From the NCBI GenBank assembly GCA_000002445.1, contig CH464491.1, positions 672,001-736,000 of the forward strand: 64,000 nt of DNA, written 5' to 3'. The stretch is from Trypanosoma brucei. Taxonomy: Eukaryota. Below are positions 2,163-43,193 of the stretch, piece by piece; position 1 is the first letter of the stretch, and each line of letters begins with the position of its first letter. Both the position numbers and the translations under genes were made by a program. Below the pieces are notes generated by a model. It did no database searches, was not told where the DNA came from, and worked only from the letters and a program-made list of their open reading frames with translations.

Positions 2163-2287
2163 CCTGCTCGGTGTGCTTCTGTATGCCAGAAGCCATTTCA
2201 GCAGCCGTTGCAGTCCTATCTCTAATGCTACGCATTCCGCTCTGTAACTGCATGAGAGTTCCCCTGCTCCGGTCTTGGGTGCACAAA

Positions 2288-12585: not shown

Positions 12586-15500
12586 CTAAACAGACATGAG
12601 GAAGGCGGCCACTCCTCCAAGTAAGAGTTGTTCATCCTTTTCCTCACCGCCAGGGACGGAGATATCGAGAATTTTGGTGCTCCGCGTGGCGTTGGTGTAG
12701 AGAGGAATATGTGCACCGCCACTCTTATCGCTGCCATACATCCACCACACCTGCACTTCAGTGGGCATAGGCATGGAGGACGGCGAGCTTGACGAAACGG
12801 GTGAAACGGTGGCTTGAGCGTCAATCAGCGAACCCTGAACTTGTATGGACTCACCCTTTATCGTAATGCATGGGGTGCCAGAGGCTGGTGAGGCACTGCC
12901 CTTACCACCTTTTGGAACGGCGACGAGCGACATATCAACAAGGGGTGCTTTGGTAGTACGAGCTGTGTACTGCCGCAGTGCGATGAGAAATGTTTGGGGC
13001 CTTAGGAAGTCCACCAAGTCAAATACACCACCACTGGGGGAGAATGCCCGCTGCGCATTGGTTGTCATGACCGTCAGCCTCCGGTTCAAAAGTTGTAACC
13101 ATAATCCAATTTCCTTCGGCCCGTCCATTTGGTCTAGCCAATTAGAGGGGGCGCGGCCACTAATAAGCTCTGCCGCTTCCTCTCGTAGTGCTGCCGAAGG
13201 CATTAACAAACCATCTGCCACACACTGCAGGTCAGCAAACTTGGCGGCAACGGATTCCACGATCTCCCTGAGCAGCCCTGCCTCACTAATAAAGAATACC
13301 TTCATAGGGTCGTAGTTTCCTTGCCCTGCGCTCAGTGCCTGAGTGCTTCCACCCTTTAAACCGCTGTTTTTCCACACTTCAAGTACTGGCACGAGCAGGG
13401 AGCGCCACACATCCTTTGCAGATGCACTGACACCTGCACTGTGGACAAATGAGCGCAATTCTTCCCTTAGGCGGTCTGTGTGCTGCTCCTTCACCGCGCG
13501 GTCTGCGTTGTCTGGCAGGCACAAAAGGGCTGGCGTGTCTACATCGGAGACGTTATCGCGGATGAACTGTACAACCTCACTATGTTCACTGGTGGTTGGC
13601 ACGTGCAGTTTCTCGTGCAGGGCTTTGGTACACGAAACGAGAAGTTCCTCATTAAAGATCTTGGAAATAAGCTTCAGCAGCACCTGTTCATCACGTACAT
13701 TCTCCAACCTTCCACCATAGATACAGTTCTGCAACATACCTCGGAGCGTGACCCAGTCCATGTTGTTGTGACTTAGCATACAGAAAACGTCTGATGCCGC
13801 TTTCATGTCTGCAAGTGAAAACTCGTAGAACTTTATCCATCCCTGTGGAACATAGTTTCTCCTCTCCTGCAGCAACGCGTGGAACCAGGCTAAACCAAAC
13901 AGCATCTGCGAAAGCGTTTTTGTCTTCAACCGCAGATAACCTTCGTCCCACATGATGTAAGACCGCATAAGATTCTGCTTCACGCCAGGGGGTGCCTCAA
14001 TTGTCATCTTTAAGGACATCCGCAGCAGCACCGTTGGGAAGAGGTCGTGGGGTTCAGTGGTTATAATAAGACGGAAGTCTTGGTTAGGTGGGGGCATAGC
14101 ACTCAGCTCTTTTTCTAACACGTAAGCCCAGTCCAGCACAAGGTGCAAATTCTTCAAGAACAGCCAGTCGCCCTGTGCTGCGCAGCGGCGGAGGTGCAAC
14201 ATTGCATCGTCCGTCTGCCCACCACCTAACGCAATTTGGGTGAAGCGCTGTCGCTCCATGCGACGGTACGCTACTTCCTGCACCTCTTGACTTGGATCTG
14301 CTCCACCTGAAGTAATCAGAATTATTGGAGTGGTAGCACTGGCGCCAGTGAGCATCTCTTCCAACGATGTTAAAGGAGTCAAGGAATCAAGCTGTAATGA
14401 GTGCATAATAACATGGTGCGCGAGATCCGCAAGTCGATCCGGCCGGAAGGTGTCCACGATGAGCAGTTGCTCCATGAAACTCAGTCCCGAGTTCTTGGTC
14501 AAACTCTCCTCGGGCGTGTTCTCCAGGATCCAACTTCCCCATCGCTTCTCATCGTTCAAATCCCACTTCTTCACGTGTTCCGAAGCTGTTGCATCCGCAA
14601 GAAGGGCTGTAAATTTAGCGCGTGACATGGGTGGAGCCCAGATTGGAAGCTGCACACTACCATCTGAGGCGGCATTACCCTCAGTATTGGCACTTCCGGC
14701 GGAGGCACCAACAAGCAGGTTCCATAGCGATGAGGGGAATTTTTGTGGGAAGAAACCGTGAATGAGATGCATACCAAAGACAAGCCGATCGCGCTCTAGA
14801 AGGCCGCGGCTCACGTGGACAAAGCACTTTTGTATGAAATTAGTGGCAAGTCCCGCCATTTTCGCCTCTATGTCTGTCTCCCCCTTGTAGCCACTCAAAC
14901 ACTCAACGAAAAGCCGTACGAAGTCATTGAGACCAAAGTGATACATACGATTCAAGTTCTCCAAGTCCTTGACGAGGAAGAAAATCGTCGACCCGTTGCT
15001 GGCGAAGGGACGATAAACCTCTCGCTTTTCATTAAGCTCCGCTTCTAGTTTATGAGACTTCTCCAGTGCCTCGGTGATACTCGAAGCTTGCACTTTCACA
15101 TCATTCAAAGCTTGTATGAGAGCAGTGTTCTCCAGCAGATCACCAGAAGAGTTGGCGAGGTCACTTAACAGTCGTTCCTCCAGTTTATTGAGCTCCAGCT
15201 TAAGGCTTTCCTCTTTTTGAAGCAATGCAGCACGTTCCTGCTCCAACTCAGGTCTCTCGTGCTGAATAGTTACACCCAAAAGCTGATTTTCCAGACCAAA
15301 CTTCGTTACGGAGAAGTTCACCACCAATACCAACGCAGCGGCGCCTGGTGGAAGATCAATATCTGTTCGTCTGGTGAAGAGCATAATGCGGAACTTGTCC
15401 TGCCAATCTACTTGCTTGTTCCCAACCTGTACCACCTGCTTAGCCCCTGCTGTGAAGATATCGCGACGAAGTATTGGATACAGGATGGGTTCTACACCGT

Positions 15501-18500
15501 CAACATCCATGACGAGCAGCGTCTTACCGAAACGCACCGCGAGTTCAAGGGTGTGGGAGAACCGCTCATCGTGCATGGAGGTTACTTCCGACACAATGTT
15601 GTTGGTCTTTAGGTTCATTTTTACCCACTCAATAGCCTGATTGGAAGGATCGATAACCAGGGGTGTCTGCACAGAATCGAGCATTGCAATTGCATTCTCC
15701 TGACTGAGGTCGTCACTTGGAAGCCCTTCACTTTTCCACTGCAGAAGTTCACCGTCCGTGCGCATATATCCCGTAAGCTTGACAACGTCGGGTAGATTGA
15801 GCCGGCTTGACCACTGCTTCAAGTAGCGTTGGCGAACATCTTCAGTTTCACGTGCGATGTATGTGATAAAAGCCGCTGCAACGAGGGCGCGCTTTGGAAG
15901 CAGCTGGTTGCTTGATTGAATCTTCTGAGCATCCTGTGACCACCGTGTTTTCTCCCCACTGAGTTTCTCAAGCAAATCCTTCGCTTTGGTAAGCTCCTTC
16001 TGCGCCTTCTCAAGTGTGTCCTTGATTCGCTCCGCGTCTTTGCACTTCTCAGAGAACTCCTTCCGTAACTTCGCAACGGCTTCATCGATTTTTTTCAGCT
16101 TGCTCTTGAGTTGTTTGAGTTGTTCCTGACCCTTTGCGCTGTTTGTCTCCAAATCCTCAAGTTGCTTGTTGAGCGGACCAATGCTTTCGAGGATGGTGGA
16201 GTAATCGATCATAGCCTTCACCCACGCTGCCATCGGTGCGGCGGCGACAGAAGCACGACGGATAGTTTCCTGCTTGAAAGAACCGGCTTTTTGATTCATG
16301 AGCCGCGCGACGTTCTCTCGGATGGGAGTTGAGATATTCTTTGCGTCGAAATCAAGAATTCTCTCCTTGACACCACGCTCACCAAGAAACTTGCGCATAG
16401 ATTGCCATGACACATCATTCACACCAAGTAGCGCAAGGACAGCCTCCAGCACGTCTTTCACTGGCTCTGGTGGCGCCTTGAGTGACCGAATTTCGTTCAG
16501 TTGCTCACTTCGAATGGAGCTAACAGCCTCACGCGCGGATTCAAGCATTGGTGTGATGCCGCTCAACTCCTTCGTTACCTTCTCCCTCTTCACCGCAATT
16601 TCCTCTTGTTCAGTGCTCAGTCGCGCTTGCAACTCCTCTGCCGTGTCACGCTGCTCTTTTGACTCCTCCATCTTCTGTTGAATCTCCGTCAGGGCTTTAT
16701 CGGCTTCCTTTTGTTTTTCCTCCACCTTCTTTTTCTTGCGCTTAACGTCCGACTGGATCTTCGCCACGCTTTCCTCTGCCTCGTGCAGCTTCGCAAGGCC
16801 CGCATCAAGTCGCTTCAAACTAGCCTCACCGCTCTCACCTTTCTTTTGAAGAATTGATTCATAATTTTCCATCAGTACTCGGAAGCGTTCGGGCGTCGCC
16901 TCTTCGCCGAAGGACTCGTGCACAGAGAAGAGCTCACGGTGTAAATGAAAACCTTTATTCGCAGAATCGGCACCAATGTTATCAATTACAGCAGCAAGTC
17001 GTTTCTTGCATATATTGCGAGTGGCGTCGTTGCTCCACGCGCCCATCCACAGCAAATCGCAGTTGCTTATGAGCCCTGGGTTAGACTGTAGCCTAACCAA
17101 AAAGAGAGGGTGGCAGTTGTCCATCACTAGTGCGATGCGGAGGTTTCGGCGAAGGCGCTGAAGGTAGAAGGATGCAATAGATCCCATGTATCCATCATTG
17201 GCGGCATCCTCACGCAATGAGGCACACATTGTTTCCACCTCCTCCTGTGTAAAGAGACCAGGCACCTCACCGCTGCTCACAAGACTGTTGATCATCTCCA
17301 AGAAGGTTTCGTCGACGATGTTGTGATCTTCGAGCATAAGAACCAACCGCTCGTTCTGTGTCGTTGCTCGCTGTATAAACTGCCTCAAGTCTTGGCGAAA
17401 GTTTTTCAGTGCGTACTTCTGCATCATATTGAGTGTCACCACGTTCATTTTTAGGAGAAATGCAGCGAGGCAGACGGCGTTACGTCGCCCCACACCGGGG
17501 CGGCCCACCAAAATAAGATGACCGAACGGCCGGGTCAGCACACGGTCCACACGCGCGAGCCACCCAACAACTTCAGGAATTACGTGGATATTCAGAGTTT
17601 TGTGTTCACGGCTGTACTTCACTATTCCCTGCTCAACCTCAGCAGCAGCAGCTTCGTACGATACACCCTTCAGACGTTTCTGACCGCGTTCGTCTGCCTC
17701 ACTGAGCCACGAGACAAACAGGATGGAATTTGCGTCATCAGCAGATGAGGAGGAAGTGGAGGAGTACCCTATCGTGGCGAGGGACTCACTTATGGTTTTC
17801 CGGGCCTTCTTGATGTCTTCAGCGCGAGGGAGACAGTCAGCGAAGATGCACGTCGCTTCGTGTCCCAAAACAGCGGGAAGCGTTGTGGTTTGTGAGTCAA
17901 TCTCATACATGAGTACATTGGTGACCCAATTGGTGATACTGCGCGGGCAGAAGAGACAGTGGGCATACTCCTCCCCTTCGCGCTTACGGCAAATCTTCTC
18001 AAACACGTTAATCACAAACCCCGATAATGTAGGGCAGTTTGCGAGGTCACAACCCAGATCGGGTACACTGCTAATGAGTGATTTGAAGTATTCCGTATAT
18101 ATCTGGTTGAGGCCCGCCTTTGAAGGGTAGGACATGAAAACGATTCCCACAACGGCGAGAAGACGAGGTGTAACAGCGTAACGACCAGCTGACACTGTGG
18201 GGTTCATACTAGCCACCAGTTGAACCTTCTCGATGCCAATCCACTCTAGGTCGTTGTTGTAAAACCCTTGGTACATGATCAACTGCATCATGAAGGCGTG
18301 AAGTTCCACAGTGCCATACCTATCCGGTTTGGGAAGATTTACGTTCTTTAGAATAATCACTAGTCTTTCACCCTCCTTAGGACGGTACACATGCCCACTG
18401 CTTGTGCTGGATATGGTGCACATTTGCTCTAGTTTTTGAATGAGGTGAAGCGAAGTAGTTTGCGCGCTGCAATGAAGGACGGTGATCCTCACACCACTGT

Positions 18501-21500
18501 GGCGGGCAAAGCACTGTTGCAGAGTAATGCTCTTTCCACTTCCCTCCGGACCGACGAGGAACACTGGACGGCAGTTGGTGTCGCTCACCAAAGGCTCAAG
18601 GGTTGCCATAAGTCGCTGCACGTCCACAGTGGGAACAATTAACTCACCCTTCAGGAGTGATCCGGACGAACTGTCCACTGTGAGATTCGAGGCGAACTCT
18701 TTTAGACATTTTTTCTCGTGATCGTAGTAAGTATCCAATGGTCGCTTCTTGGACACAGGGCTAACTTTTCCCATTTCGTACACTGCTGTTGTGATAGTTT
18801 TGGCGCCTTCAGGGTGGAGCATACCACAGAGCCCGCGAAGCAGCGAGAACACGAAGTCTTCTTCATTGGCCACATGCAAAATGTGTGCAAGACAACAGTT
18901 AAGAATCCCCATACCGGTTGTAGGTACCACGAGGGCGTCCAGTCGCAGTGTTTGATGCACAGCGGGAATAAGGTATTTTTCAATAAGAGGCCCAAGGAGC
19001 TCCCGACGCTCCTCTGGTTGCTTGTGGAGAAACGAGCGTACAGCGGGCTCAAGACTAACATCATCTTCGGAGAACAGGATGACACCCATACGGGATACAG
19101 TGGCAGGAGAGGCATATGCGAGGCTGTGTGTCTCAAAAATAAAGTTCACATTCTTACCAAACTGGATACGCACACCATTGGGAAGTGTCAACAACTTGTT
19201 GTCGTCAAGGACAGAGTTGAGCGACTCAACCCATTCAGGGTCAATATCGCCATCACATAGAATCCACGGCCGAGATTCTTTCGGTTGTCTCACAACATCC
19301 CGCGCAGCGGCGGACAGCACACCATCGTACCACTCTCGTGTGTCCGGGTCCATATAACCCAAAAGCTGCTGTCGGTGAATAGCCTTAGGGTTCATTACAT
19401 GCAGCGGGACTTCAATCTTTAGTATTTGCATCGCTTTGCGGAGAATGCGAAGAAGTGTGCTCTTTCCACTACCGCTTGGACCAACAAGCACAACTCCCAT
19501 ACGCTGACCCAGCGCCTCGTATAACTGAAGGACCTTGTGAACCTGGGACTTGACGAGCTGCAAACCCAGCTCACGCACAGCCACTTCAATGGCAGATTCG
19601 AGCTCCCCGTACGCAATCTCGCGAATACTCACCTGCGGGAACACATCCACTGCTAATTCCCTGAAGAGTCGTGCGTCATCGACGGAGAGTTTGCTAAGCA
19701 TGTTGATGCTAAGCGATTGCAAAACCAGCTCTTCTTCCTGTTTCTCACTAGCTGCATTACCTCCGTTGTCTGCCTTCCACTTTTGCACCAAAGACCCTGC
19801 AAGGTGAAGCACAGCCTTCAGTGAACGCAGACCCCAGTCGTAGTGCTGCTGCTTTGACATTAGCTGCCCAGAAAGGCGGTACATTTCCACGATTTTCTTT
19901 GCTAGGTTTTTCGCATGAGTAAAACCCTCTGACAACAACATGGTCGACGTGATAAGCTCGTTGTTGGGCTGTGTCATGGCAACCTCACGGAACAGTTGCC
20001 TCAAGTTATCCGGTAACTTAGAACGTCCACCGTAACCTTTACCGGCGGGGTTCAGTGTAACGAAGATACCAGCGTTCTTGTTCACCTGAATAAGCCGGTT
20101 TAGAAGTGTGCAGGAGGGCTCGCGATTTTTAATTGCCTCCTGGATTACTTGAATCATTTGAGATATGGCTGAAAGCTGATCTATTTTGAGACGATTGAAC
20201 TCATCGAAGCAGCCCCAGGCACCGCACTTGACAATTCCCATGAAGATACGCCCCATAGACTTAAAGTCAATACCCTCATCGCAGTTGAAAACAAGCACTT
20301 GCCGCCCCATTGCACTACCCAGCGCTTTCACAGATTCCGTTTTACCTGTACCTGCAGGTCCGTACGGATTACCACCATAACCAAGTTGCATACCTTTGGT
20401 AAGAACCAAGTAACACTTGTCAGTCAGCGGAGTGTGCACAAGTTTTGCCGCATTGCCTTGGTATTCGTACGTATAATCAAACTTTGTGTCCATCATCGCT
20501 ACGTAGCATAGTTCGTTTTCGTTCATGTAGTAGCGCAACTGCTTCTGCCACCACCAAGACTCCGTGGAAGTCACTCCTTTCGCCACCAGTGCTTCTACGA
20601 CTTCAATGTGATGAATAACATCGAGGATAAGGGCTTTCACCTTCAACTTGGATACAGGGTCGGTATCAGCAGGAAACATTGTCAACTTGTTCAAAACGTT
20701 CTTCAACTCACCTCCCAGTGCTGATAAGGAGTTTTTGCTGATTGCTTCTTCTACAGCTGCACTGAACTGCACCTGCAGTGTCACTTGAAGTACTTGCGAG
20801 GGGTAACGGTTTATTGGCTCAGGGTCAATGATATTCTTCACTTTCACACAAGAGGCCAAAAGTCGTTGTAACGTTTCCTTCATGCACTGGTCCAACGCAA
20901 CCAGCCACTTCTCAACGTCATCCTCCTCGATAGACACGGGTTTTGCCAATTCCACTTGCTCTCGATCTGAGGACACCATATGCGTGATAAACTTATGATC
21001 CTCGCTGAAGATCACGGAGTTAATTCCCATAAAGAGTTTCTTGAGGTGGGCCTGAATAACAGATGGGCTCTTGCTGTGACCCAATATTTCAAGCATATCC
21101 TCGTCACTAATAAAATAGAAACGGGAGAAACTCTCACGTTTGGACTCGAGAAACTCCATCAGTGATTTCTGGCAACGCTCAATTTGGTCGAGAATAGTCT
21201 TCAAGCGGTCCACAATGTCCGCCTGCGATGCAATCGTCATCACGCGTGGATCTGCCTCTACATCTTGCATGATAGACACAAATTCTTTGTCCACACGCTT
21301 AAAGCGAGCCTGTTCCTGTGGTAACGCACCACGAGCGAAGATGGGTTCCAGGTATGTCCATTTCCGTTGTATCGTATTCATCAGCATAAGAGCTTCATAC
21401 AAGTTAGCAAGTTTGACCTCCCACCCGTTTGCCTCATCCGCAAAGTGGGAAAAGAATGGACTGTCTTTAAGTGACCCAATCAGTGACTGGTTGTCACTCA

Positions 21501-24500
21501 CTTGTGCTAAAGTCTCCTTCCACTCAGAGATGAGCTTCACCTTCGCCGGTGTTGCACTGTCTGCTGGGGCGATGAGAGTAAAATTGGCCTCCAAAGCCCA
21601 CGCTCGGAGGTCTTGCAGTGCCTCACGTATTTGCACTTCACCCTGAACCCTTGCATGAAGTTGTTTCAGCTCGGTTTCTGCTGCTACAAGCTGTTTGTGA
21701 TGGTCGAGGATATGACCGAACGTAAGATCCGTGCTCGTCATCCCCTTCTCTATTTCAAGCAGACGAAACATTTCGTTCCAGTGTTCCGTCATCATACCCT
21801 CACCGCGAACAAAACGGAACATGGGGACACAAATTGCCCACCCCTCAAGCATGTTATGAAGGTATTGTGCGATGACATCCGTATCACTACCCATATGGGA
21901 TGCGTTAGCAGTTGCAGTCAGCTTTGCTTTCCATTCCTTCATGAAGTCCTCAAATACGTATGTGTGCGACCGGAAGGTCAGCCAATCCTCCTTGCGCAAT
22001 GTATCAAGGCTCTCTCTGAAGTTATCATAGAGAGTCCACATAGTGGCTGTCTGCGAGACGTCATTAAGCGTGGTTTCCAGTTCATGGAAGTTTGGTGGTG
22101 GAAGTTTAAAGTGCAAGCATTTAGCTTCAAGCTCTTTTGATTGAGTTTTCAGCTCATCCAACTCGTTGTAGCTGTCCTTCATCTGCGTCAAGGTAGTATC
22201 GATCAACGCAGGTTTGCTCTCTTTAAACGCCTCGAGAAGCTGCGCTTTCATTTTATCCCACTTGGAAGAGAAGCGTTGCCCATCTTTCATATGCTTTTGG
22301 ATCATGCTGTCCAGCGAGACCCGCATTTTTGACATAGAAGCGTCAATAACTTTGTGGTGTGACGCGATTGCCTCGCGCAAGTGTTCCCAACGGGACTTTG
22401 TGGAACCGATGTCAATAACCGTTCCAGTGTGCTGCCGGAGCACCCGATTCAATTCCTCCGCCTCACTAAACTTTTCTTCATATGATGGCATTGCTGCCAC
22501 GAACTCTCGATAGGCCTTATTTGCCTGTCCAACCTCTTCCATAGTAACAGGTTGCCGTGTGATGACGTTAGAGGCGTTGTACACAAAGGTGTCAATTGCT
22601 GACAGCGTCTGCTGCATCGTCTTACGCATGGCGTTGAGCAATGCCTCCTCGAGGCGATGTAGCTGCTCCTCAACACTCGCCTTTATGGGAATAGTGCTAA
22701 TAGTGAATCCGTCAATTTTCATATTATCATCGATGTCACGAAGTTTATTTAACTGCTCCTTCACAACATTAAAACCATCCGAGTAGTTCTTGAGATTCGC
22801 GCAAGTTGCTTCGACAAGTGCGTCAATGTCAGGGCCACCATTTATGCCGCAAGTTCCTACCAGCACATGTGTGCGGAACGCTTTACGCACACGGTTAAGC
22901 TTTCCGAAGAGCTCCACCGCCTTGAGGTGGACGGTAACGATACGGTCCTTGTTTGAAAGTGGTATCAATTTGTACAACTCGTAAGGACCCCCCGATTCCT
23001 TCTTCTGTTGGAGGCCGCGGAAGCGGAGCGGAATACCCACCAACTCGCGCACCTGCTGGTAGTACGCCTCACGCACCGCTTCAAAACTGGGCTTGAACTG
23101 TACCTGGCCCTGTTTGAACACCAATTCCACCTTAAATTCCTGCATCTTCTCATGCATTGTTTCCAAACCTCGCTGGTATTGGTGCTCTAGCGCTTTGTAG
23201 ATTTGAGCATCGAGATGACGCCGCCAATTGTCATAATTGTCGATGTTGTGGGCATTCAGGAACTCCTCGAATAAGCGCCGCAGACCATCTACAGCCGTAC
23301 GCCACTGATCCGTTTGGCCGGCAAGTTCGAGGTTGTGCAACTCTGCCACCTGATTCATGAAGTCAACATGAAAACGGCGGATGCGGCGGTTTTCCACGCA
23401 CAGTGCGTCCACTGCGTTTTGGAACCGCATGTTGAGGCCGTCAATTTCGTTGTAGTTAGCAATAGTTACTAACCGCTTGTCGGAGCCCTTGTAGAGCAAC
23501 TGTGACAAGGCATGATTCGAGGCTGACTCAAGCATCGACCGCGTACAGTGAATGATTTGCCGTTGCACGGTGTTGTAGTTGCTCACGACCTGCATACTGC
23601 GAGTGGTGGCTTTAATAAGTTTTTCACAGGCCTTAATTACACCCTCCCCCTCCTCACTAATGCGCAAAAGCTCCTCGTGGCGACGACCGCACCAACTACG
23701 CATGCTGTATATCTCCTGTAAGCACTGTTTGATAGATGGATGCACAGTACATGTGATACACTGCTTGTTGGATCCGTTAAATACAACAGCATCTGGTAAA
23801 CTTGTTAACTTCTTGCAATGGTTTTCCATGTTCTGCCTCCAAGCTGCTAATGCCTCGCTCTCCTCTTTTTGCATTTCACCCATAATACCCTCAGCGACCT
23901 TCACAACCTGGTCAAGGCTTGTGGATTTTCCAAAGAGGATGCCAGCAATCTCTGGTATCTGCGCGCACTCCGTCTGGGCGGACTTGGCCATTTTTACAGT
24001 ATGCAGGTCTGTCGTAGACCGCCGCTTGTTATTCTCATAGCGCACTTGGATCTTTTGCAGCTGCTTGATGAGGTGTTCAGCAACACTGGCCATATCACCC
24101 TCGACGCCGTTTTTAATCCCCTCCCGGTTAAGCAGAGTTCTGTGCTGCTTGAGCGTACGGATCAAATCTTCCTGACCCCGCTGATTACTGCCGAAGAGCT
24201 GCTTCACGCGACCACGAAGATGGTCCTCCAGGAAAGAGAACTCTTTTTCAAATTTGCCGATGCACGTTTTCCAGCGGTCATCGGATGTCACCCTCCGGTC
24301 CGTAACGCTTTCTCCGTCAAACACAACTTCGGGTGCAATGCTCTCTGGCGCCTTTCCTGGTGAAAGATTCTCTGCACTGGCCAGCAGTTGCCGAATTCTC
24401 AACACGTCCCGCAAGCGTTGTTCAAAAGCACTCTGCACTCCACCCTTTTCAGATCCCACATCCACATCTTTCCACTCTCCTCTCAGCAGGACTTCCTTCA

Positions 24501-25509
24501 TTGATCCCCACTCCGCAATCAACTCCACGGATTTCTCCAGTTGATCAATATTCATACGCCATATGCCACGCCAGTCTCTTCCATCGAGTAGTAGTTGGCC
24601 TTTAACGTACTCCTGCAGATCCCCCGAAACTATGGAGAGCAGCACCGCCGCGTCCATTTTATTGCGCTCACTGTGAGGGTTGCGCTTCCAGTAAGAGCGG
24701 AGCGTCTCATACACAAGTCCCAGAACCTCCCGTGCCTCTGCCAAAGCGAAAGACTTTTGACGCCACTGAATTGGTAATTCATGTTCAACTGGGGTGGCCG
24801 AATAGGAAGCAACAGCACTGGCCAATACACGCATATTAACCCATACTTTTAGTTGCGGCTCCCCGGAAGACTTCTTGGTAGCAGCTGCCCCTCCACTAAC
24901 GCCGTTCGTATCGGCATCTTCATTTTCCTCCTCATCACCCGCGGGGCGCGAGGATTTGGCCCTTTCCATGGGAAGCGGGGTGGAGAGATTAGAGTACACT
25001 TGCACACAGGATGCTTTCCTCATTACCAGATCCAGCCGCTTACCCGTCGGGCACATAACCTTTGGGAACTTTTCCACCATCACCGCCCCACTAGGCAGGT
25101 CCGACACAACATCGTTGTAGAGCGTTTCCAACACAAGGTGAATGTTCGGTTGGTCGGATACCTCATCTATATTGTCGGGAAAGTCATCAACAGCCCCTAC
25201 CTCCTTCAAAAATTTATCGAAGGGCAGCACCTGCTTCTTCACCAGTGTAAAGTTTGTTTCCTCACTTTCTGAGGGAAGTCGGAGGCTCGTACGACCACCT
25301 GTCATATCCCGCACGATTGTCAGGCATAACCGCTGAAGATCATCTGTCAATCGTGCTTCCTCTTCACCACCAATGGGGATCGGCTGCGCAGTAAACAAAA
25401 TGCAACCATCACCACGCGTTAAGTTCCCTCCACCGAATATAACGCGCAGGTGACGCTGTACAACGTTCAGTAGTTGCGACTCAACAACGATGGGTCCTGA
25501 GCGCTCCAT
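12586..25509 (-). CDS. DHC2: Cytoplasmic dynein-2 (IFT retrograde motor) heavy chain, 4307 aa. Probably the DHC2.2-type paralogue.
   Basis: Single 12.9-kb ORF with four P-loops: [15 protein letters not shown] (AAA1), GPSGSGKST (AAA2), GPEGSGKS (AAA3) and GRPGVGRRN (AAA4). The AAA1 block [39 protein letters not shown] matches DYNC2H1-type dynein-2 far better than axonemal (GKTETTKDL) or dynein-1 heavy chains. Its size matches DYNC2H1 (about 4300 aa). Confidence 0.9.
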   Translation of the reverse strand: [4307 protein letters not shown]

Positions 25510-27639: not shown

Positions 27640-29289
27640 CTACGACTGGCCGTTCGCATTCTTACGGAGAAGGCTGGCCAGTACTCGCTCCTGCCCCACA
27701 CGCCGCAACCAGTCAACAAAAAGTGTGTGCACTTTTCCTCGTAACTCATCTGCTAAATCTTTCCTTCCATCCGCCTCGAGTCGTTCATATGCCTCCCGCA
27801 ACTGCCGCGAAGTTTCCTGAAAACGTCGCACGCGCCGCTCCATCGCGGTGGCATACGGCGGAGGCGGCGGACACGGATTCGTGCGGGTGGTCACCACAGC
27901 GCTGGTGTGCGGGGCGACGGGAAAACACACGGGGGTGAATTCATCTGGTGGTAGGATACAATGCGGGGAAGGGATACCAACATTCCATAAATTCATCATG
28001 GGGTTTACCCCGGAGTTTGCCAGATGCTCCTCTAAGGTGGAGTAGTGCGAGTTGTACGGGGCGAAGCGGACATTCTCTGAGTTCTCGCTTCCCTCGAGCT
28101 GGCAGAGTACGGGTGGACTGTTCGTACAGATGAATATGTTCACATTGCGGCATCGGTTCACCACCACAGCAGTGCACAAGGCTGAGATATTGGTGTTCTC
28201 GCAACGATCTATGTACAAAACTCCCCCGACTGGACCTAAAGCAACGGTGCAATTGACAAGTTGAGTGAGCCGTGTGTGAGGAAGGTCGGAAGTAACATAA
28301 AAGCTAGTTTGCGAGCACTTCTCGACGGTGTAGCTGGAGGATATAGCTAACTTCGGGCTATAAGTTACCACTGGGCACGTAGGGATGCAAATAGTTCCTT
28401 GCAAACCCTTAACTACAATGTTGTTGCTAAAAGGTGACGAGCGTGAAGTGGCGGCTAACTCACTAGGCACCGTTATCCTAGGACGTATGAACTGAGAGAG
28501 TATTGTAATGTCGATCGTTTTCTCAGACCGCGGCCACAGAAAGCCGATGCTGGTGCCAAAAGGTTGCTCCACGCCATTAACGAACTCCCGAAGCAAAATT
28601 CGAAGCTCTTTCGAATCACTCAACGTTAATCTTCCTGGTCGCGTGATGGCTACTACACTTATGTAGTCATGAAGGTGTTGACGCACACTTGCCATAACGC
28701 GCTCCCGCTCCGACTCACCCGGTAGTACTCGCTGAGTTTGCTCCACGACAAGTTGGGCGAGCAGAAATATGATGAGTGCCGGTAAACCTATTTGCCTAGT
28801 GGCGGAAACTACAGGCCAGCGGGCGACGTCTACCGTTCCGCCCATCTTTTTAAGTAATGACCGGCTTTCCTCCTGCCTGCATTCCACCGGCGACCTCACC
28901 TCAGGGCTGCCGTTGCCGCTCCCTGTACTGCTTCCTAGTGATGCTGCAGTGTATTGAGTGTATCCACCTGTTAATGCGTATACCACATCGAAAATTGAAC
29001 TGGCAACGGACTCGCGCATGCCAAGAACATTAATGGCAATATCTACCCAAACGGAGAGTGAGATGGCAGTACGATTTGGACACTCCTGACGAATTTTCAT
29101 CACTGATGAAGTTGTGAGACCACTGGGCACTTCAAGAAGGAGGCCACAGCTCTGAAAAAGAACCGAGTTGACACAAAACACCACCTGATTGGTGCCCAGA
29201 AGTGCAGATGTGGGAGAACTGTCCCCGTAATAGGGGTTTCCAGGGGCGTATTTGTTAGTCATTTGGACACTAAAGCGAGACAACACCAC
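27640..29289 (-). CDS. Hypothetical 549-aa protein. It is Cys-rich and has a hydrophobic segment (IGLPALIIFLLAQLVV), a PPPPPY motif and a C-terminal coiled-coil tail.
   Basis: Long clean ORF on the polycistron strand. No family recognised. Confidence 0.6.
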   Translation of the reverse strand: MVLSRFSVQMTNKYAPGNPYYGDSSPTSALLGTNQVVFCVNSVLFQSCGLLLEVPSGLTTSSVMKIRQECPNRTAISLSVWVDIAINVLGMRESVASSIFDVVYALTGGYTQYTAASLGSSTGSGNGSPEVRSPVECRQEESRSLLKKMGGTVDVARWPVVSATRQIGLPALIIFLLAQLVVEQTQRVLPGESERERVMASVRQHLHDYISVVAITRPGRLTLSDSKELRILLREFVNGVEQPFGTSIGFLWPRSEKTIDITILSQFIRPRITVPSELAATSRSSPFSNNIVVKGLQGTICIPTCPVVTYSPKLAISSSYTVEKCSQTSFYVTSDLPHTRLTQLVNCTVALGPVGGVLYIDRCENTNISALCTAVVVNRCRNVNIFICTNSPPVLCQLEGSENSENVRFAPYNSHYSTLEEHLANSGVNPMMNLWNVGIPSPHCILPPDEFTPVCFPVAPHTSAVVTTRTNPCPPPPPYATAMERRVRRFQETSRQLREAYERLEADGRKDLADELRGKVHTLFVDWLRRVGQERVLASLLRKNANGQS

Positions 29290-37700: not shown

Positions 37701-40700
37701 CTACGTCTGTGCAAGCACGTCAACAAGGCGGTCCAAGGCACAGCACTCACCCGAATGGTCCCCGCAGCTTCGAGCCTCTTTCATTGCCTGCAGTGCCGTC
37801 TTCAACTCATTCAAAGCGTTATCAGTCAACAACGAATCTGAGCACACACGTCGGAGGGCTGCCTCAACGTCAATCGGCTCCGTATGGTTTCGCACGAAGG
37901 GAATAACAACATCATTCAGTTCGTCCTCCTCGTCGCTATTACCACTACCATTTTTCACACCTGCTCTCGAGCCACCTTGACGACTTCTTTCGATCTCCAT
38001 AGTGCCACCGGCTCTGCCTTTCATGGATAGCCTCGGTGTGGTGCCGCGTGGTGTCATGAGTGCTGTGGCTTCACGCTGCTTTATTTTCTCTAAGGAGTTG
38101 ACATTCTCGTCCACATGTCTCCAGTAAGTCAAATCACCGTGCACTTCTTCGGCCTTCTCTCCATCCTCCAGCGCCCGCCGCAAGCAGAGGATACTCTCCT
38201 GGCACGTTACACCGGGGCTTTCATACAATATGTTCCGTATGACATGACGAAGTCCATCGTAGAACTCGTCACTGTTCTCCATGTCGTGAAATGTAACAAA
38301 GAGAGAGCGTTGCACCATGCGCAGCAGTGCACGGCTCCCGGGTGAGCTTATCACCCACATGGTGTTTTCCCAGAACTGACTGCTGCCTACGACATATACA
38401 CTGTTGGTCGCGACCACAGACGGTTCAGTGCCCTTTGTATTGTTACTGCTACCATTGACATTACTGCCTACGCGGTTTCCACCCTTGCCGTCGTCTTGTG
38501 AATTCGGGTTCCACACCAGATCTTCCAACTTGACGCAGCGGGCCGTGGCGGGCCCGAGGTAAACTTTCTTGGCACAGTGCGCCACACGACTCACAATGCG
38601 CGAGAAAAAGTTGTGCGGCACCATGTTCAATGTAAAGCGGTAAAAAGGACCATGTAAAAACGATGGCACGTGCATGCAGAACGAAGAGGGAGTGGGATTC
38701 ATGAAGCACGAGGGTATGAGCACAAAATGCTCTGACTCGGGACCACCTGAGGGACCCGCAGATTTTTTCCGTCCAAGCCCGGATCCAACTTCCCTCATGT
38801 CTTTCCCAGCATTCGTCGGCGACGACTGTACGCTTGTGTTTTCATCGTTGAAAAAAGAGTACTGAAGTCGACTACCCATAATGATAAAGTCATAACTGCG
38901 CAACAACTCCAGCAACCCACCTAGTTGTGCGAAACCATATCCCTTTTCCTTTAGTACTCCATCGAATAGAGCTAACGCTGTCCTCATTGTCAAAACACCC
39001 TGAAGCAAGGCTCCACATACATCTTCAATTAGAACAGCATCCACATCGAATGGAAGGGATTTTCTCATGCTTTGCATAACCTCTCGGCACAGGACGAGTG
39101 GCACGGAGCGGAGAGACGAGTCATTTCCAGGGAGTTTGGGTGTCACAGTAGAGCAGCATGACAAGGTAGCCACGACGCGAAAAACCCACGGTGTGTCCAC
39201 AATTACATACTTCCTCATGGCACGGTGCCTGTAGTGGTGATGCAACACACCCCAACTCATTAAAAGTTGAATATGTCGATGGAGGTCGTCCAAATTGTCA
39301 CTGTAGCGGTTATCCAATGCATTGGCAACTGATTTAAACTCTCCAAAGGCTACACACCACTTCCCTTCACGGTTTATTTCTTTCGTTCGCTTCCCAAGGG
39401 ATAGCAGCAACTTTGGAACCTGAGCATTTGGAAAGTCAGCATCATTGCGGCAGCGCCGAATAGCTTGATCCCCAAACCAGGAAAGCAAATCAGGGAATTT
39501 CCTCAACCGCTCAAACATTGGTGCAAAAACAGTGCGGTTAACATTATCCACAGCGAAGCACCCAGCGATGGAGGGCCGCATGTCTCCAACAACTTGCAGC
39601 GTACGAAAGTAATTGTTCACTTGCATCTCAAGTTCGGAGAAATGTTGAGCTAACTTACTGCTCTTAAGCGGGGAGCGGTCGAGGTAAGTTCCAACCAACA
39701 CCACAGAAGTGTCTCGGGTGGTGGTGTGTGAAAGAATAAACTCCAAAAAGGGCAGAAGGCCTTCGAACGGGACGCTCTGAAGAAGTGAAAAGCATAACAC
39801 ATAAGTTGCACGGCGCGTTGGCAGAAGCCCCTGGAGAAGAGAAAAGCAACCAGTCCCCCCTAATTCCATCACATTCATCTCCACAGACGGATACTCCCCT
39901 GTGCTTGAAATCGTTGTTGACTCTACTCCAAAGGAGGGTCGCAAGTTCTTTTGATCACTAGTGAAGATCGAGTACCATTTGTCCTGTTTGTGCAAGTTTT
40001 CGCGGAAAGAAGTTTTCCCGCAGCTGCCGCAACCGAGCACAAGGAAGGTGTGACGATAAATAACATTGTATTCGTCGTCTCTGAGTTTTAACCTCCTTGC
40101 CGTCTTCACTGCACGAATTCGCTCCATACCTTCGCCAGCACCAATACGACTTCTCCCTACTCCCTTTGCAGTCCTTGGTAAACGAACTGACGTGGGTCGG
40201 ACGTCGGCCGCCACTGGGTCTTTGTGAGTTGGCGGGCGATAGGTGTTTGTTTGGGCCTGGTGTTGCAGAACATCTTTCAGCTGCAATGCTGGAACAAAAG
40301 GGGAAACACCACTACCCGCAGTAATGGGGGGAACAACAGGTACTGCACTACCACCATTACCAGTATTAGCGGCACTAGACGCGATGCCTCCTCTCGGACT
40401 GTTAGTGGCGGCAACGGTAGTGATACCAACACCCACACTTTGTGTTGGTGCAGGGATTCTCAAGCTAGGTACGGAGCTTTCGGAGATGCTTTTAAAACGA
40501 GGTGAGAGTATTGTACCCTCCGCCGAGCGCATAGGACGACGCCGCGCAGTCATCGACGGCGCTGTGGGGTCTGTGAACTTGAACTGCAGAAATTCATCTC
40601 CAATGCACACCACGGTACCACTCATTAACGGGACGTCCCTCGATATTGGTTCCTGTTCGTCATTAATGTACGTGAGGTTGCCCTCCAGAGGTCGAAGTAA

Positions 40701-42419
40701 CACACAACCATTTCCCTGGCGAACGAAGCAACAGTGCCGTGGAGCGACTCCGCTGGTTCCCTCTCCACTCACTGTGATGCTCCGCCACTCGCTCCCTGGT
40801 GTTGGCTCTTCTGTTCCAAGGTATGTGGTTCCAGCCACAAGGTGCTCAACCACCCAATCCCCTACACCTTCCATATTTAGAATAAAGGGCTCATTACGGT
40901 CTAACTTAATTGTTGGGTGCGTTGGCCTTGGTGCCTCTTGCTGTTTCCCTTCCGCTTTGGTGAGTTGCTTTATAAGTTCTTCCGCCTGCTCCAATTTTGA
41001 TAACAAAACAGCAGCGTCATGTGGCCTTCGTGGTGTCATGGAGGGGATGCTACTCTCTAGATCCTCCATGTTACTGGCGGGGCCGTGGCCGCCCCCAGTG
41101 GAATTGGGTAACCCACCAGGATTTGCTAAATCTGGCATTACTCCTCCCCGAAGAGCAAGTTCCTCGTAGTGCTTCATCTTCTCTCGCAGTTGCTGTACCT
41201 CTTCTTCCAACTCACGTATTCTCTTATCCCCTGCTGCGGCGTTTACAACTGCACGGGTGACGATAGACTTAGCACGATCCGCATAGCGCAGCGTGCTCAT
41301 CGTTTCGTCGTAGTTTGCCGCTGCCGGGCTGAGCGTAGACAACATGAACGTTTTACTGTTCCCGCCGAGAGACTCCTTAAGGATAAATGTTAAGGTGGAG
41401 TCACGATACGGGACGTGTCTTCGTCCACCAGCATCCGGCTTGCTTTTTCCGATGTCTGCTAAGGCACTAATCACCTGACCTAAAACCGTCAGAGATTTGT
41501 TTATATTTGCTCCCTCACGCAATGTGCCACCTTCTGCACCCGTAGACTTTGCCCTCTCACTTCCTGCAAGGTCCACCAGGTTAACTTTTGCACGGAGCTC
41601 TGTGCATGACACCGTACCATCTTTTACCTTCCCCATACGCTTCTGGATTACTGTGATTGAGAATATGGCGTGAGATCTACTTGAACGGTCATTCATATTT
41701 GTTGCTGCAATGTGACGACTTTGATTTCCTCCGTGCATCACTTGCATCATACTCTCCTCAGAATCCACTTGCACCTCCGAAATACCTTCAACATATACAC
41801 CCAACACCTTGTGCTCGCGGACTTTGAGGTTCTCACACTTTGGATTAAGAAGGCAGTTGACACGCTCCTGGTATATTTCCATGTAGCTCACGAGAACTGT
41901 AATGTTCAACTGCGGTGGAAGTGCATTTTCCTCAACGCCTGATGAGCGCGCCGCCTCTCGTTCCCGCTCGTTCTCCGCCACTTCCTTCGCAACCATCTCA
42001 AAAAGACCCCTGGAAAGTCGGGGAATAATACCGGGGTCAACCACTACATCACGGCCACCCGAAGGACCCATCATGGAGTAGCTCTTCCCGCTTCCAGACT
42101 GGCCATATGCGAAAACACATGCATTGAAACCTTTAATGGTTGCCTGGAGAACGGGGATACCAAGATACTCGTACACAGTTGTTTGGCTGTCGTTGCTGTC
42201 AAAAGCTCGGTCGAAGCTGAAGCACTTTCCCCCCGCCGCATCACACCCTGCGTCAGCCGCCGCACCGTTGGGGACACTTGACTTGTAAATACTAACCGTT
42301 TTTCCATTTTGGAACTGTAGGCAAATGGGTGAGTTGAGACGCTTCTCCCGCTCGTTGAGAGGTCGGGCACGCACGCAAACGGTCACATGCCCCTCCTCCG
42401 CATCGCGTGGCTTCGACAT
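37701..42419 (-). CDS. Kinesin motor - FHA - Roc GTPase - COR(A+B) multidomain protein (kinesin-ROCO fusion), about 1572 aa from the likely start MSKPRD. The longest ORF extends to 42569.
   Basis: Motor: GQSGSGKSYSMMG (P-loop), SSRSHAIFSI (switch I), VDLAGSER (switch II), then neck. FHA-like region at about aa 560-670. Roc: LVLGCGSCGKTSF (G1) and VVLVGTYLD (G4, cf. LRRK2 ILVGTHLD), correctly spaced. COR-A: LLMSWGVLHHH...YVIVDTPWVFRVVATL (cf. LRRK2 FLNESGVLLHF...YFVEPKWLCKIMAQIL). COR-B: PFYRFTLNMVPHNFFSRIVSRV (cf. PYFPMGFWSRLINRLLEI). Confidence 0.8.
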   Translation of the reverse strand: MSKPRDAEEGHVTVCVRARPLNEREKRLNSPICLQFQNGKTVSIYKSSVPNGAAADAGCDAAGGKCFSFDRAFDSNDSQTTVYEYLGIPVLQATIKGFNACVFAYGQSGSGKSYSMMGPSGGRDVVVDPGIIPRLSRGLFEMVAKEVAENEREREAARSSGVEENALPPQLNITVLVSYMEIYQERVNCLLNPKCENLKVREHKVLGVYVEGISEVQVDSEESMMQVMHGGNQSRHIAATNMNDRSSRSHAIFSITVIQKRMGKVKDGTVSCTELRAKVNLVDLAGSERAKSTGAEGGTLREGANINKSLTVLGQVISALADIGKSKPDAGGRRHVPYRDSTLTFILKESLGGNSKTFMLSTLSPAAANYDETMSTLRYADRAKSIVTRAVVNAAAGDKRIRELEEEVQQLREKMKHYEELALRGGVMPDLANPGGLPNSTGGGHGPASNMEDLESSIPSMTPRRPHDAAVLLSKLEQAEELIKQLTKAEGKQQEAPRPTHPTIKLDRNEPFILNMEGVGDWVVEHLVAGTTYLGTEEPTPGSEWRSITVSGEGTSGVAPRHCCFVRQGNGCVLLRPLEGNLTYINDEQEPISRDVPLMSGTVVCIGDEFLQFKFTDPTAPSMTARRRPMRSAEGTILSPRFKSISESSVPSLRIPAPTQSVGVGITTVAATNSPRGGIASSAANTGNGGSAVPVVPPITAGSGVSPFVPALQLKDVLQHQAQTNTYRPPTHKDPVAADVRPTSVRLPRTAKGVGRSRIGAGEGMERIRAVKTARRLKLRDDEYNVIYRHTFLVLGCGSCGKTSFRENLHKQDKWYSIFTSDQKNLRPSFGVESTTISSTGEYPSVEMNVMELGGTGCFSLLQGLLPTRRATYVLCFSLLQSVPFEGLLPFLEFILSHTTTRDTSVVLVGTYLDRSPLKSSKLAQHFSELEMQVNNYFRTLQVVGDMRPSIAGCFAVDNVNRTVFAPMFERLRKFPDLLSWFGDQAIRRCRNDADFPNAQVPKLLLSLGKRTKEINREGKWCVAFGEFKSVANALDNRYSDNLDDLHRHIQLLMSWGVLHHHYRHRAMRKYVIVDTPWVFRVVATLSCCSTVTPKLPGNDSSLRSVPLVLCREVMQSMRKSLPFDVDAVLIEDVCGALLQGVLTMRTALALFDGVLKEKGYGFAQLGGLLELLRSYDFIIMGSRLQYSFFNDENTSVQSSPTNAGKDMREVGSGLGRKKSAGPSGGPESEHFVLIPSCFMNPTPSSFCMHVPSFLHGPFYRFTLNMVPHNFFSRIVSRVAHCAKKVYLGPATARCVKLEDLVWNPNSQDDGKGGNRVGSNVNGSSNNTKGTEPSVVATNSVYVVGSSQFWENTMWVISSPGSRALLRMVQRSLFVTFHDMENSDEFYDGLRHVIRNILYESPGVTCQESILCLRRALEDGEKAEEVHGDLTYWRHVDENVNSLEKIKQREATALMTPRGTTPRLSMKGRAGGTMEIERSRQGGSRAGVKNGSGNSDEEDELNDVVIPFVRNHTEPIDVEAALRRVCSDSLLTDNALNELKTALQAMKEARSCGDHSGECCALDRLVDVLAQT

Positions 42420-43193
42420 CCCAATACGAATATATGCGTCGCAACGAATCAAAACGAAGGAGGGTGTGGTAAGGAAAGAAGGACGAGGGGTTTCTTCAAT
42501 AAAGATAGAACAACCCCCAAAATCTATATCTGCACCCTTTTGATGGTAATTTCTGTAACCTTCGGCCACTCAACTTCTTGTTCTTTTTCGTTATCCCTCG
42601 CTTATGTTCTATTAGTAACCCTCCTTTAAGGTACTTGGCGGTACACGAACTGAAATCACAAAGTAATTCACCGTGAGGTGCGTACTTAGAGAGAGAGAGA
42701 GAACGTGCAAGTCCAGCCTGTGATAGTTGGGTCCGATGAAGGCTGTAACACTTCAGCACGGGAAATATCCGCACCTTCCACCTAACAATAGCAACTTTCC
42801 TCGTCCTTTCCGTCGTTGTTGCCGTTCCTTTTTGGTGAGAGAACTTTTCTCCCCTTTTGCCTGTATGTGTTTCCTCTCTTTACTCAGGTTTTTCGTCTAC
42901 CTTTCTTGTTCACACCTCGTTTGGACTACTCTCCAGAAAGCCTTGATTATTTTTTTCTTCCTTGCTTTTTCTTTGTTGGCGCTACTGACGTGATGAATGC
43001 TCTTTGTTTTTTTTTGAAAAAAAAAAAAAGAAAAGCAACTCTCAATTCCACGTCGGCCAATTCTTCAACAAAAATGTGGTCCCTCCTTTCCAGCAGACGC
43101 GTTAGTAATAAGCTACTTCTGCTAATGCTCTGCGTATGCGAATGTATGAGTGAAACATACGAATACGAGCATTGTTGACGTTATATGTGCGTG

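Follow-up and report, generated by a model that had tools for sequence, protein, structure and literature searches.

Kinesin-3 motors such as KIF1A/UNC-104 become active when monomers pair into dimers and when CC1-FHA-mediated autoinhibition is lifted, for which Arl8 or Rab GTPases acting in trans are often the trigger. The C-terminal cargo domain varies within the family. ROCO proteins, whose Roc-COR module forms the core of the Parkinson's protein LRRK2 and which are intensely studied on its account, enter into promiscuous domain combinations. A 2019 review describes them from prokaryotes, metazoa, plants, and Dictyostelium, with leucine-rich repeat (LRR), kinase, and other partners and without mention of kinesin, and assigns Roco dimerization to the C-terminal half of COR (PMC6337361). 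Roco proteins are reported to follow a monomer/dimer cycle that depends on their nucleotide state (PMC6337361; PMC5714945), and the signal path from the Roc-COR nucleotide cycle and dimerization to the output domain is still debated (PMC6337361). The present study concerns a minus-strand gene in a 64,000-nucleotide stretch of the Trypanosoma brucei genome (hereafter the window; GenBank assembly GCA_000002445.1, contig CH464491.1, positions 672,001 to 736,000), which an earlier note, made from the sequence alone, had read as a kinesin motor fused to a Roc-COR GTPase module. We hold with high confidence that the encoded protein has this architecture and that its C-terminal half is homologous to ROCO proteins. 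Positions are those of the window, and residue numbers are counted from the upstream GTG of the mechanically called open reading frame (ORF).

Homology of the C-terminal half to ROCO proteins

The gene lies in a single 4.9-kb ORF (37701..42569, minus strand; 1622 aa from GTG) free of internal stops. This uninterrupted frame and all quoted motifs were found where the earlier note had placed them, including the Roc motifs LVLGCGSCGKTSF (843-855), MELGGTG (901-907), and VVLVGTYLD (956-964) and the COR motifs WGVLHHH (1106-1112), YVIVDTPWVFRVVATL (1121-1136), and FFSRIVSRV (1321-1329). The domain order is kinesin motor, neck coil, CC1-FHA, disordered linker, Roc, COR-A, COR-B, and a 158-aa tail. 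Among the Pfam families that had been expected in the translation, Kinesin and FHA exceeded their cutoffs, whereas COR-A stayed below its cutoff (E=0.19 in the whole protein and 0.01 in the isolated domain; cutoff 35.3 bits) and neither Roc (PF08477) nor COR-B was matched by the window sequence alone, as whole protein or isolated segment. Pfam Ras, whose cutoff is 21.6, gave 16.9 bits for the whole protein and just passed at 21.9 bits for the isolated domain. Nothing in NCBIfam matched the C-terminus, and its single-sequence phmmer matches in the PDB all had E>0.1, with Rac, Rit, and LRRK2 mixed. Because these single-sequence searches were uninformative, a family profile was built.

Word-indexed searches gave few relatives (2, 7, and 2 matches). 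A more diverse set of 35 cluster representatives was obtained when aa 817-1466 were searched exhaustively with phmmer. Named homologues came from Trypanosoma species, Bodo saltans, Leptomonas pyrrhocoris, the prokinetoplastid Papus ankaliazontas, and the diplonemids Diplonema ambulator, D. papillatum, D. japonicum, Flectonema, Sulcionema, Lacrimia, Namystynia, and Rhynchopus. A Pfam scan of 36 family sequences detected Kinesin in 22, Ras in 15, COR-A in 15, Kinesin_assoc in 12, Roc in 10 (best 7e-13), COR-B in 9 (best 1.3e-9), and FHA in 7. Kinesin, Kinesin_assoc, FHA, Roc, COR-A, and COR-B follow one another in single chains of P0036, P0027, P0024, and P0020, such full-series chains being found in diplonemids and a prokinetoplastid. 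In homologues, Roc exceeded its cutoff of 27 at 49.3 (P0036), 45.2 (P0024), 34.8 (P0027), and 32.4 bits, and COR-B was above cutoff in P0020 (38.5 bits) and P0027 (28.1), while the COR-A matches, at the expected position in 15 of the 36 members, were each below cutoff (maximum 28.4 versus 35.3). Homologues with Roc or COR-B above cutoff match the C-terminus of the window protein at phmmer E=1e-24 to 1e-38; P0024, P0027, and P0020 lie at 1e-26 to 1e-38, and P0036 is more distant (3.3e-5). Given how closely the full-series homologues are related to this C-terminus, the homology of the window protein to Roc-COR, as judged from sequence, is transitive but secure.

The Roc-COR profile, A4, was made from an alignment of 14 sequences headed by that of the window and searched against all PDB sequences. 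LRRK2 ranked first (E=4.3e-25) and LRRK1 followed (3e-15), ahead of RhoG (2.6e-14) and Rab6, a preference for LRRK2 over non-ROCO GTPases of about 10 orders of magnitude. LRRK2 aligned through collinear Roc (independent E-value 6e-19) and COR-A (0.016) segments, and LRRK2 chains consisting of Roc only scored 7e-22 and 80 bits, compared with 55 bits for RhoG, the best non-ROCO GTPase. The HMMER family-profile alignment also reproduced the pairings with LRRK2 that had been made by hand (SGVLLHF, YFVEPKWLCKIMAQIL, and FWSRLINRL), although the COR-B segment, which pairs FWSRLINRL with FFSRIVSRV, was weak and not significant alone. With a control profile made from the window, T. congolense, and Angomonas sequences only, seven LRRK2 Roc chains still came first (E=0.0015-0.005) and Rap and Rab trailed at E>=0.05.

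The predicted fold agrees with the profile. AlphaFold2 (AF2), run on aa 825-1470 with the A4 alignment, returned a Ras-like fold followed by a COR fold, as the earlier note had anticipated, with a mean predicted local distance difference test score (pLDDT) of 80.7, a predicted template modeling score of 0.83, and low confidence only in three loops and the termini. The Roc domain had pLDDT values mostly of 82-95, and the inter-COR loop fell below 50 at model residues 417-455; the limits of Roc, COR-A, the loop, and COR-B were taken from this model. In a Foldseek search of the PDB the best seven matches were all ROCO proteins, with 424-717 aligned columns, among them LRRK2 (8fo9_A, E=4.9e-15, 629 columns), LRRK1 (8e05_A, 7.9e-15, 717 columns), and Methanosarcina barkeri Roco2 RocCORdC (4wnr, E=3.3e-12, TMt 0.68), and the ROCO matches included a COR-only structure. 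Other GTPases appeared from E=2e-7 on, plain small GTPases covering only about 210 columns. The Roc/COR signal, marginal when the window sequence is taken by itself, is far beyond chance at the level of the family profile and of the predicted fold, and a Roc-COR module in the order that had been proposed is likewise indicated by the Pfam matches of the homologues.

Weak AAA_16, AAA_22, MMR_HSR1, and nSTAND matches on some homologues, together with the mixed single-sequence PDB matches of the window protein, could be taken as signs of an unrelated P-loop NTPase (AAA/STAND, septin, or another Ras-like family) in the second P-loop region, with a likeness to COR that arose by chance. However, the AAA matches span only about 20-50 P-loop residues and lie under their cutoffs, whereas homologues exceed the Pfam cutoffs for Roc and COR-B, the profile places LRRK2 far ahead, and the fold fits ROCO structures across 400-700 positions, so that such an origin is very improbable. 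An AAA/STAND/septin identity was rejected on the grounds that only short, sub-threshold P-loop matches were obtained; septin, which the earlier note had named as a possible outcome, never appeared among the matches.

An artefact, in which adjoining kinesin and ROCO genes were read as one through an assembly or annotation error, would account for the T. congolense and Angomonas entries that hold the C-terminal part only. Against it stand the single stop-free ORF in the window and the occurrence of the full-length architecture in five other Trypanosoma species, Bodo saltans, Leptomonas, Papus, and several diplonemids, that is, in independent genomes and transcriptomes. The artefact was rejected on account of this conservation and has a negligible probability; kinesin-Roc-COR is conserved as one polypeptide in kinetoplastids and diplonemids. 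The two C-terminal entries, P0001 (T. congolense, 881 aa) and P0002 (Angomonas deanei, 734 aa), hold the Roc-COR half only or start inside Roc. Both sequences join the family alignment some way after its start, and the entries thus resemble truncated gene models in which the fusion goes unseen. At the other extreme, P0013 (Leptomonas pyrrhocoris), P0014, and P0016 are much longer homologues (1906-2168 aa). In P0013 the kinesin motor match falls into two separate parts, which implies large insertions, and G4 is degraded in some of the three (THAH, TFAD).

Kinesin-3 front half

The canonical N-terminal kinesin motor read from the sequence was borne out by Pfam Kinesin (E=8.5e-103, 344 bits), the whole 327-position model being covered. 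In phmmer searches of the PDB the motor was closest to KIF13B (331 bits), KIF1A (314), and KIF14 (270). The best 26 distinct matches listed, at 240-331 bits, were KIF13B, KIF1A, KIF14, a KIF1C-related Neurospora motor, and KLP-6, and kinesin-1 (237 bits) was the first match outside kinesin-3, a grouping that is a similarity ranking rather than a formal phylogeny. Behind the motor, AF2 predicted helices at model residues 12-39 and 82-107 of the neck-to-FHA region, and positions 1-37 of the neck profile matched the KIF13B/KIF1A neck, with the CC1 of KIF1A matched too.

An FHA-like region resembling that of kinesin-3 had also been suggested, and several analyses agree with it. The FHA domain of the window protein scored 23.1 bits in Pfam (cutoff 20.7), and a neck-to-FHA profile from 12 family members (A5) found the KIF1A CC1-FHA structure 4egx (E=3.3e-24) and the KIF13 structure 5djo (2.3e-19), the matches after KIF1A CC1-FHA being the FHA domains of KIF13A, KIF1B, KIF1C, and KIF13B. 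The AF2 model shows a beta-sandwich (pLDDT 84-95) behind the neck-coil helix and the CC1 helix, and the best 15 Foldseek matches were all kinesin-3 CC1-FHA or FHA structures. Public annotation names the orthologues 'Unc104-like kinesin, putative'. No Pfam match to PH, PX, CAP-Gly, or another C-terminal lipid or cargo domain was found in the window protein at E<=10. Because such tails vary within kinesin-3, their absence does not exclude membership. As judged by motor similarity and the predicted CC1-FHA tandem, the N-terminal half is a kinesin-3.

Comparison with described ROCO and kinesin-3 proteins

The window protein shares with LRRK2/LRRK1, Chlorobaculum tepidum Roco, and M. barkeri Roco2 the order and fold of Roc, COR-A, and COR-B. 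Like LRRK2 it has a G4 of the type G-T-H/Y-L-D and no catalytic Gln, and its COR-A 'WGVL.H' and COR-B 'P..FF.RL..R' blocks align to LRRK2. It differs from the described ROCO proteins in lacking LRR, ankyrin, kinase, WD40, and death domains, in having an N-terminal kinesin motor as its partner, in the kinetoplastid G3 (E-L-G-G), and in a sequence identity of only 11-17% to solved ROCO structures. In all structural respects tested, from sequence and predicted fold, it is a ROCO protein.

Compared with kinesin-3 (KIF1A/UNC-104, KIF13A/B, KIF16B, KIF14), the protein has a motor closest to KIF13B/KIF1A, a neck coil directly behind it, and the CC1-FHA tandem, Kinesin_assoc being present in 12 family members. 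In contrast, the K-loop is weakly basic (GKSKPDAGGRRH) and the PH, PX, CAP-Gly, or MBS/DUF3694 tail is missing, with Roc-COR and an unmatched tail in its place; regulation by a small GTPase would be intramolecular rather than provided in trans by Arl8 or Rab. In the animal lineage, a 2026 study places KIF16B, a kinesin-3, in the group of ten proteins with the closest co-evolution with LRRK2 (Jaccard 0.83; PMC13304329), which hints independently that ROCO proteins and kinesin-3 are functionally linked in animals.

Kinetoplastea and Diplonemea are not among the ROCO lineages listed in the review (PMC6337361), and no description of a kinesin-ROCO fusion or of kinetoplastid ROCO proteins was found in the full-text literature searched, with most subscription journals outside its reach. 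The supposition that the architecture is undescribed agrees with this result, whereas the supposition that ROCO proteins are unreported in kinetoplastids holds for the literature searched and not for sequence databases, in which P0045 carries an automatic Pfam Roc match of 43 bits and the T. congolense fragment P0001 a precomputed Ras match. Because of these entries, and because subscription journals were largely beyond the search, it is likely but not certain that the fusion is undescribed.

Conservation of the Roc module

The G1 P-loop (GxxxxGK[ST]) occurs in every family member that covers the region, and in the 14 sequences of A4 the G3 Gly never varies, while G4 Thr/Asp and G5 Ala vary hardly or not at all. 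The window protein itself has G1 GCGSCGKT, G4 T-Y-L-D, and the G5 Ala. The degenerate G3 remarked on in the earlier note is real and is a feature conserved in kinetoplastid orthologues (E-L-[GS]-G), while diplonemid orthologues have D-x-S-G and a second lineage (P0036-P0039, P0045) has the canonical DF[AP]G[QE]. Among six Trypanosoma species, identity to the window protein is 51-54% in Roc and 51-60% in COR-A, both free of indels, and 54-66% in COR-B. The linker (26-35%, 46-55 indel columns) and the inter-COR loop (27-38%) are at 26-38% identity with many indels. By this conservation, purifying selection acts on the Roc-COR module as a folded unit. In the T. brucei linker, about 40-45 residues (SPRFKSISESS...NTGNGGSA) are additional to those of other Trypanosoma species.

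The 158-aa tail downstream of COR-B is 45-57% identical among Trypanosoma and has the conserved stretches VDEN.NSLEKI..RE and IPFVRN and a terminal LDRLVD.LAQ block. The region is a candidate for cargo binding or regulation.

A second trypanosome ROCO-type protein, P0045 (T. cruzi TcYC6_0050350, 987 aa), has no kinesin motor. It matches Pfam Roc at 43.3 bits, above cutoff, and the family profile over positions 10-571 (E=1.5e-96), and its motifs are canonical (GHQEVGKT, DFAGQE, ATHLD, AVSCK), by which its place is with P0036 and P0038, the diplonemid 'clade B' kinesin-ROCOs. All three sequences belong to the same Roc-COR family as the window protein, P0036 and P0038 also carrying a kinesin-3 front end. 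Clade B has canonical Roc motifs (GH.EVGKT, DFAGQE, THLD/THKD, AVSCK) and above-cutoff Pfam Roc scores of 43-49 bits, whereas the window protein represents the other, G3-divergent lineage. This distribution suggests two paralogous Roc-COR lineages in these protists, with the motor lost in one.

Proposed regulatory role of Roc-COR

The best explanation overall, and one that we regard as probable, is a kinesin-3 with Roc-COR as a built-in regulatory module. A ROCO-type Roc-COR-A-COR-B unit and an unmatched tail stand where animal kinesin-3s carry PH, PX, or CAP-Gly domains. Roc would still bind guanine nucleotide, which is rather likely because the P-loop K852/T853, G4 Asp964, and G5 Ala are kept, and COR-B would dimerize, by analogy with its counterparts in C. 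tepidum Roco and LRRK2. According to its nucleotide state, Roc may then shift the monomer/dimer or open/closed equilibrium of the tail, and this shift would gate the monomer-to-dimer activation and the release of autoinhibition that control kinesin-3 processivity. Small-GTPase control would in this way be built in cis, where Arl8 or Rab act in trans on KIF1A-type motors, and cargo could be bound by the conserved C-terminal tail or by the Roc switch surface. This gating by dimerization is the most economical reading of the combined premises and is put forward tentatively; that Roc-COR is a working cis G-protein switch, turning the kinesin-3 on and off through nucleotide-dependent COR-B dimerization, is possible yet not probable.

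Several points weigh against this reading and against the assignments on which it builds. The window sequence alone does not pass the Pfam cutoffs for Roc, COR-A, or COR-B, the AF2 alignment held 14 sequences only, and, since AF2 training included LRRK2, the confidence of the model depends in part on a known fold. In the G domain, G3 has E-L-G-G in place of DxxG (Asp to Glu), with Thr at the position of Ras Gln61, Ser replaces the Thr of relatives in G2, and Tyr replaces their His in G4; owing to these divergences, GTP hydrolysis and even Mg2+ coordination may be altered. In addition, COR-B dimerization may be redundant or serve another purpose, because kinesin-3s already dimerize through the neck coil. 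No published account of the function, biochemistry, localization, or knock-down of this gene was found, most subscription journals being outside reach.

The main rival to the switch, given the G3 Asp-to-Glu change, is that Roc is a pseudo-GTPase and Roc-COR a constitutive scaffold, a permanent dimerizer and/or cargo dock, with only the usual CC1-FHA autoinhibition for regulation. It would explain why all kinetoplastid orthologues have the altered G3 and no Gln at the catalytic position, why the window protein also has G2 Ser and G4 Tyr, why G4 is further degraded in some family members (THAH, THAN, TFY), and why Roc of the window protein is under the Pfam Roc threshold. Yet the P-loop is kept in all members covering it, A4 has the G3 Gly without exception and G4 Thr/Asp and G5 Ala with few exceptions or none, Roc lacks indels and equals COR in conservation, and diplonemid orthologues retain DxxG. 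Nor does the missing Gln disqualify a Roc, because LRRK2 (DFAGR) lacks it too. Such a scaffold is possible, though we consider it somewhat doubtful.

A further alternative is that the Roc-COR tail is mainly a second microtubule or cytoskeleton binder, making the protein a crosslinker, tether, or slider of subpellicular or flagellar microtubules and not a vesicle transporter. The LRRK2 Roc-COR is reported to touch microtubules (PMC9758056, PMC9290818) and faces them in LRRK2 filaments. PDB 7thy ('ROC domain interacting with the microtubule') was among the fold matches, and many trypanosomatid kinesins are reported to have cytoskeletal rather than transport roles. However, LRRK2 filaments also require kinase and WD40 domains, which are absent here, and the family keeps the full layout of a kinesin-3 transport motor, so that this alternative seems unlikely. 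The preferred reading remains the kinesin-3 with built-in regulatory Roc-COR.

Gene structure and genomic context

The earlier note had begun the ORF at the GTG at 42569, and this start is corrected by the orthologues. The equivalent of Met51 (MSKPRDAEEG, ATG at 42419) is the start in all full-length orthologues compared; those of T. vivax, T. cruzi, T. conorhini, T. rangeli, and T. grayi have the equivalent Met and align end to end. Since every full-length orthologue begins there, the true start is almost certainly this ATG, and the protein therefore has 1572 aa. Its nearest relatives are from T. congolense (59-62% identity) and T. vivax (55-60%). The features are given in Table 1.

Table 1. 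Features of the kinesin-3/Roc-COR gene and other elements of the window
Feature	Window position	Strand	Residues	Remarks
Complete coding sequence, kinesin-3/Roc-COR protein	37701..42419	-	1572 aa from ATG M51	Stop 37701-37703
In-frame extension upstream to GTG	42420..42569	-	1-50	Probably untranslated; in no orthologue
Kinesin motor	41262..42371	-	67-436	P-loop GQSGSGKS (156-163), switch I SSRSH (296-300), switch II DLAGSE (333-338)
Neck linker/neck coil, low-complexity stretch, CC1 helix	40905..41261	-	437-555	AF2, profile
FHA domain, kinesin-3 type	40545..40904	-	556-675	Pfam, profile, AF2, Foldseek
Disordered low-complexity linker, FHA to Roc	40071..40544	-	676-833	No domain matches; poorly conserved
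Roc G domain	39513..40070	-	834-1019	Profile, Pfam Ras, AF2, motifs
Roc G1	40005-40043	-	K852/T853	GCGSCGKT; within Roc
Roc G3	39849-39869	-	E902-L-G-G905	Within Roc; T906 at Ras-Q61 position
Roc G4	39678-39704	-	T961-Y-L-D964	Within Roc
Roc G5		-	Within 834-1019	FAVDN; motif
COR-A, helical/winged-helix part	38883..39497	-	1025-1229	Holds WGVLHHH and VDTPWVFRVVATL
Variable disordered loop, COR-A to COR-B	38727..38882	-	1230-1281	AF2, poor conservation
COR-B, presumed dimerization half	38178..38726	-	1282-1464	GPFYRF..VPHNFFSRIVSRV, FWENTMWV, SRALLRM
Conserved C-terminal tail	37704..38177	-	1465-1622	No Pfam or PDB sequence match
Antisense ORF, most likely spurious	40243-41169	+	308 aa	Opposite FHA/linker region; no Pfam or family match
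Dynein heavy chain	12586-25509	-	4307 aa	DYNC2H1-type AAA domain match
TTL-family gene	9679-11619			Same polycistron
TBCC-domain gene	27640-29289			Same polycistron
Non-LTR retrotransposon	453-5473	-		Two adjoining ORFs; endonuclease, reverse-transcriptase, and RNase H/zinc-finger domains

All ORFs of at least 250 aa in the window are on the minus strand, save the one antisense ORF within the kinesin gene, a one-strand layout that fits a trypanosomatid polycistron. The neighboring genes are unrelated to the kinesin and encode an M32 carboxypeptidase, an RRP12-like protein, an M17 aminopeptidase, a TBCC-domain protein, UDPGP, TTL, a dynein heavy chain, a Rad51-like protein, and a non-LTR retroelement, which looks ingi-like, as would fit the T. 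brucei group. The dynein heavy chain, TTL-family, and TBCC-domain genes share the polycistron of the kinesin, and this grouping of microtubule-related genes is probably coincidental. A functional tie of the kinesin to these neighbors was set aside, because gene order in trypanosomatid polycistrons is no guide to function.

Implications

The ROCO repertoire gains Kinetoplastea, Diplonemea, and a motor partner, and the orthologue group named only 'Unc104-like kinesin' should gain Roc, COR-A, and COR-B in its annotation. The output domain here is a kinesin-3 motor, whose activity depends on oligomeric state and can be measured per molecule, in a host trypanosome that is genetically tractable. If the switch is true, this would be the first molecular motor described as having a regulatory Ras-like GTPase built in, one that carries its own small-GTPase regulator rather than recruiting Arl8 or Rab, and its motility would provide a single-molecule read-out of the disputed Roc-COR monomer-dimer cycle. 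Moreover, the functional link between ROCO proteins and microtubule transport, which for LRRK2 is seen only in trans, would have arisen independently or anciently in Euglenozoa.

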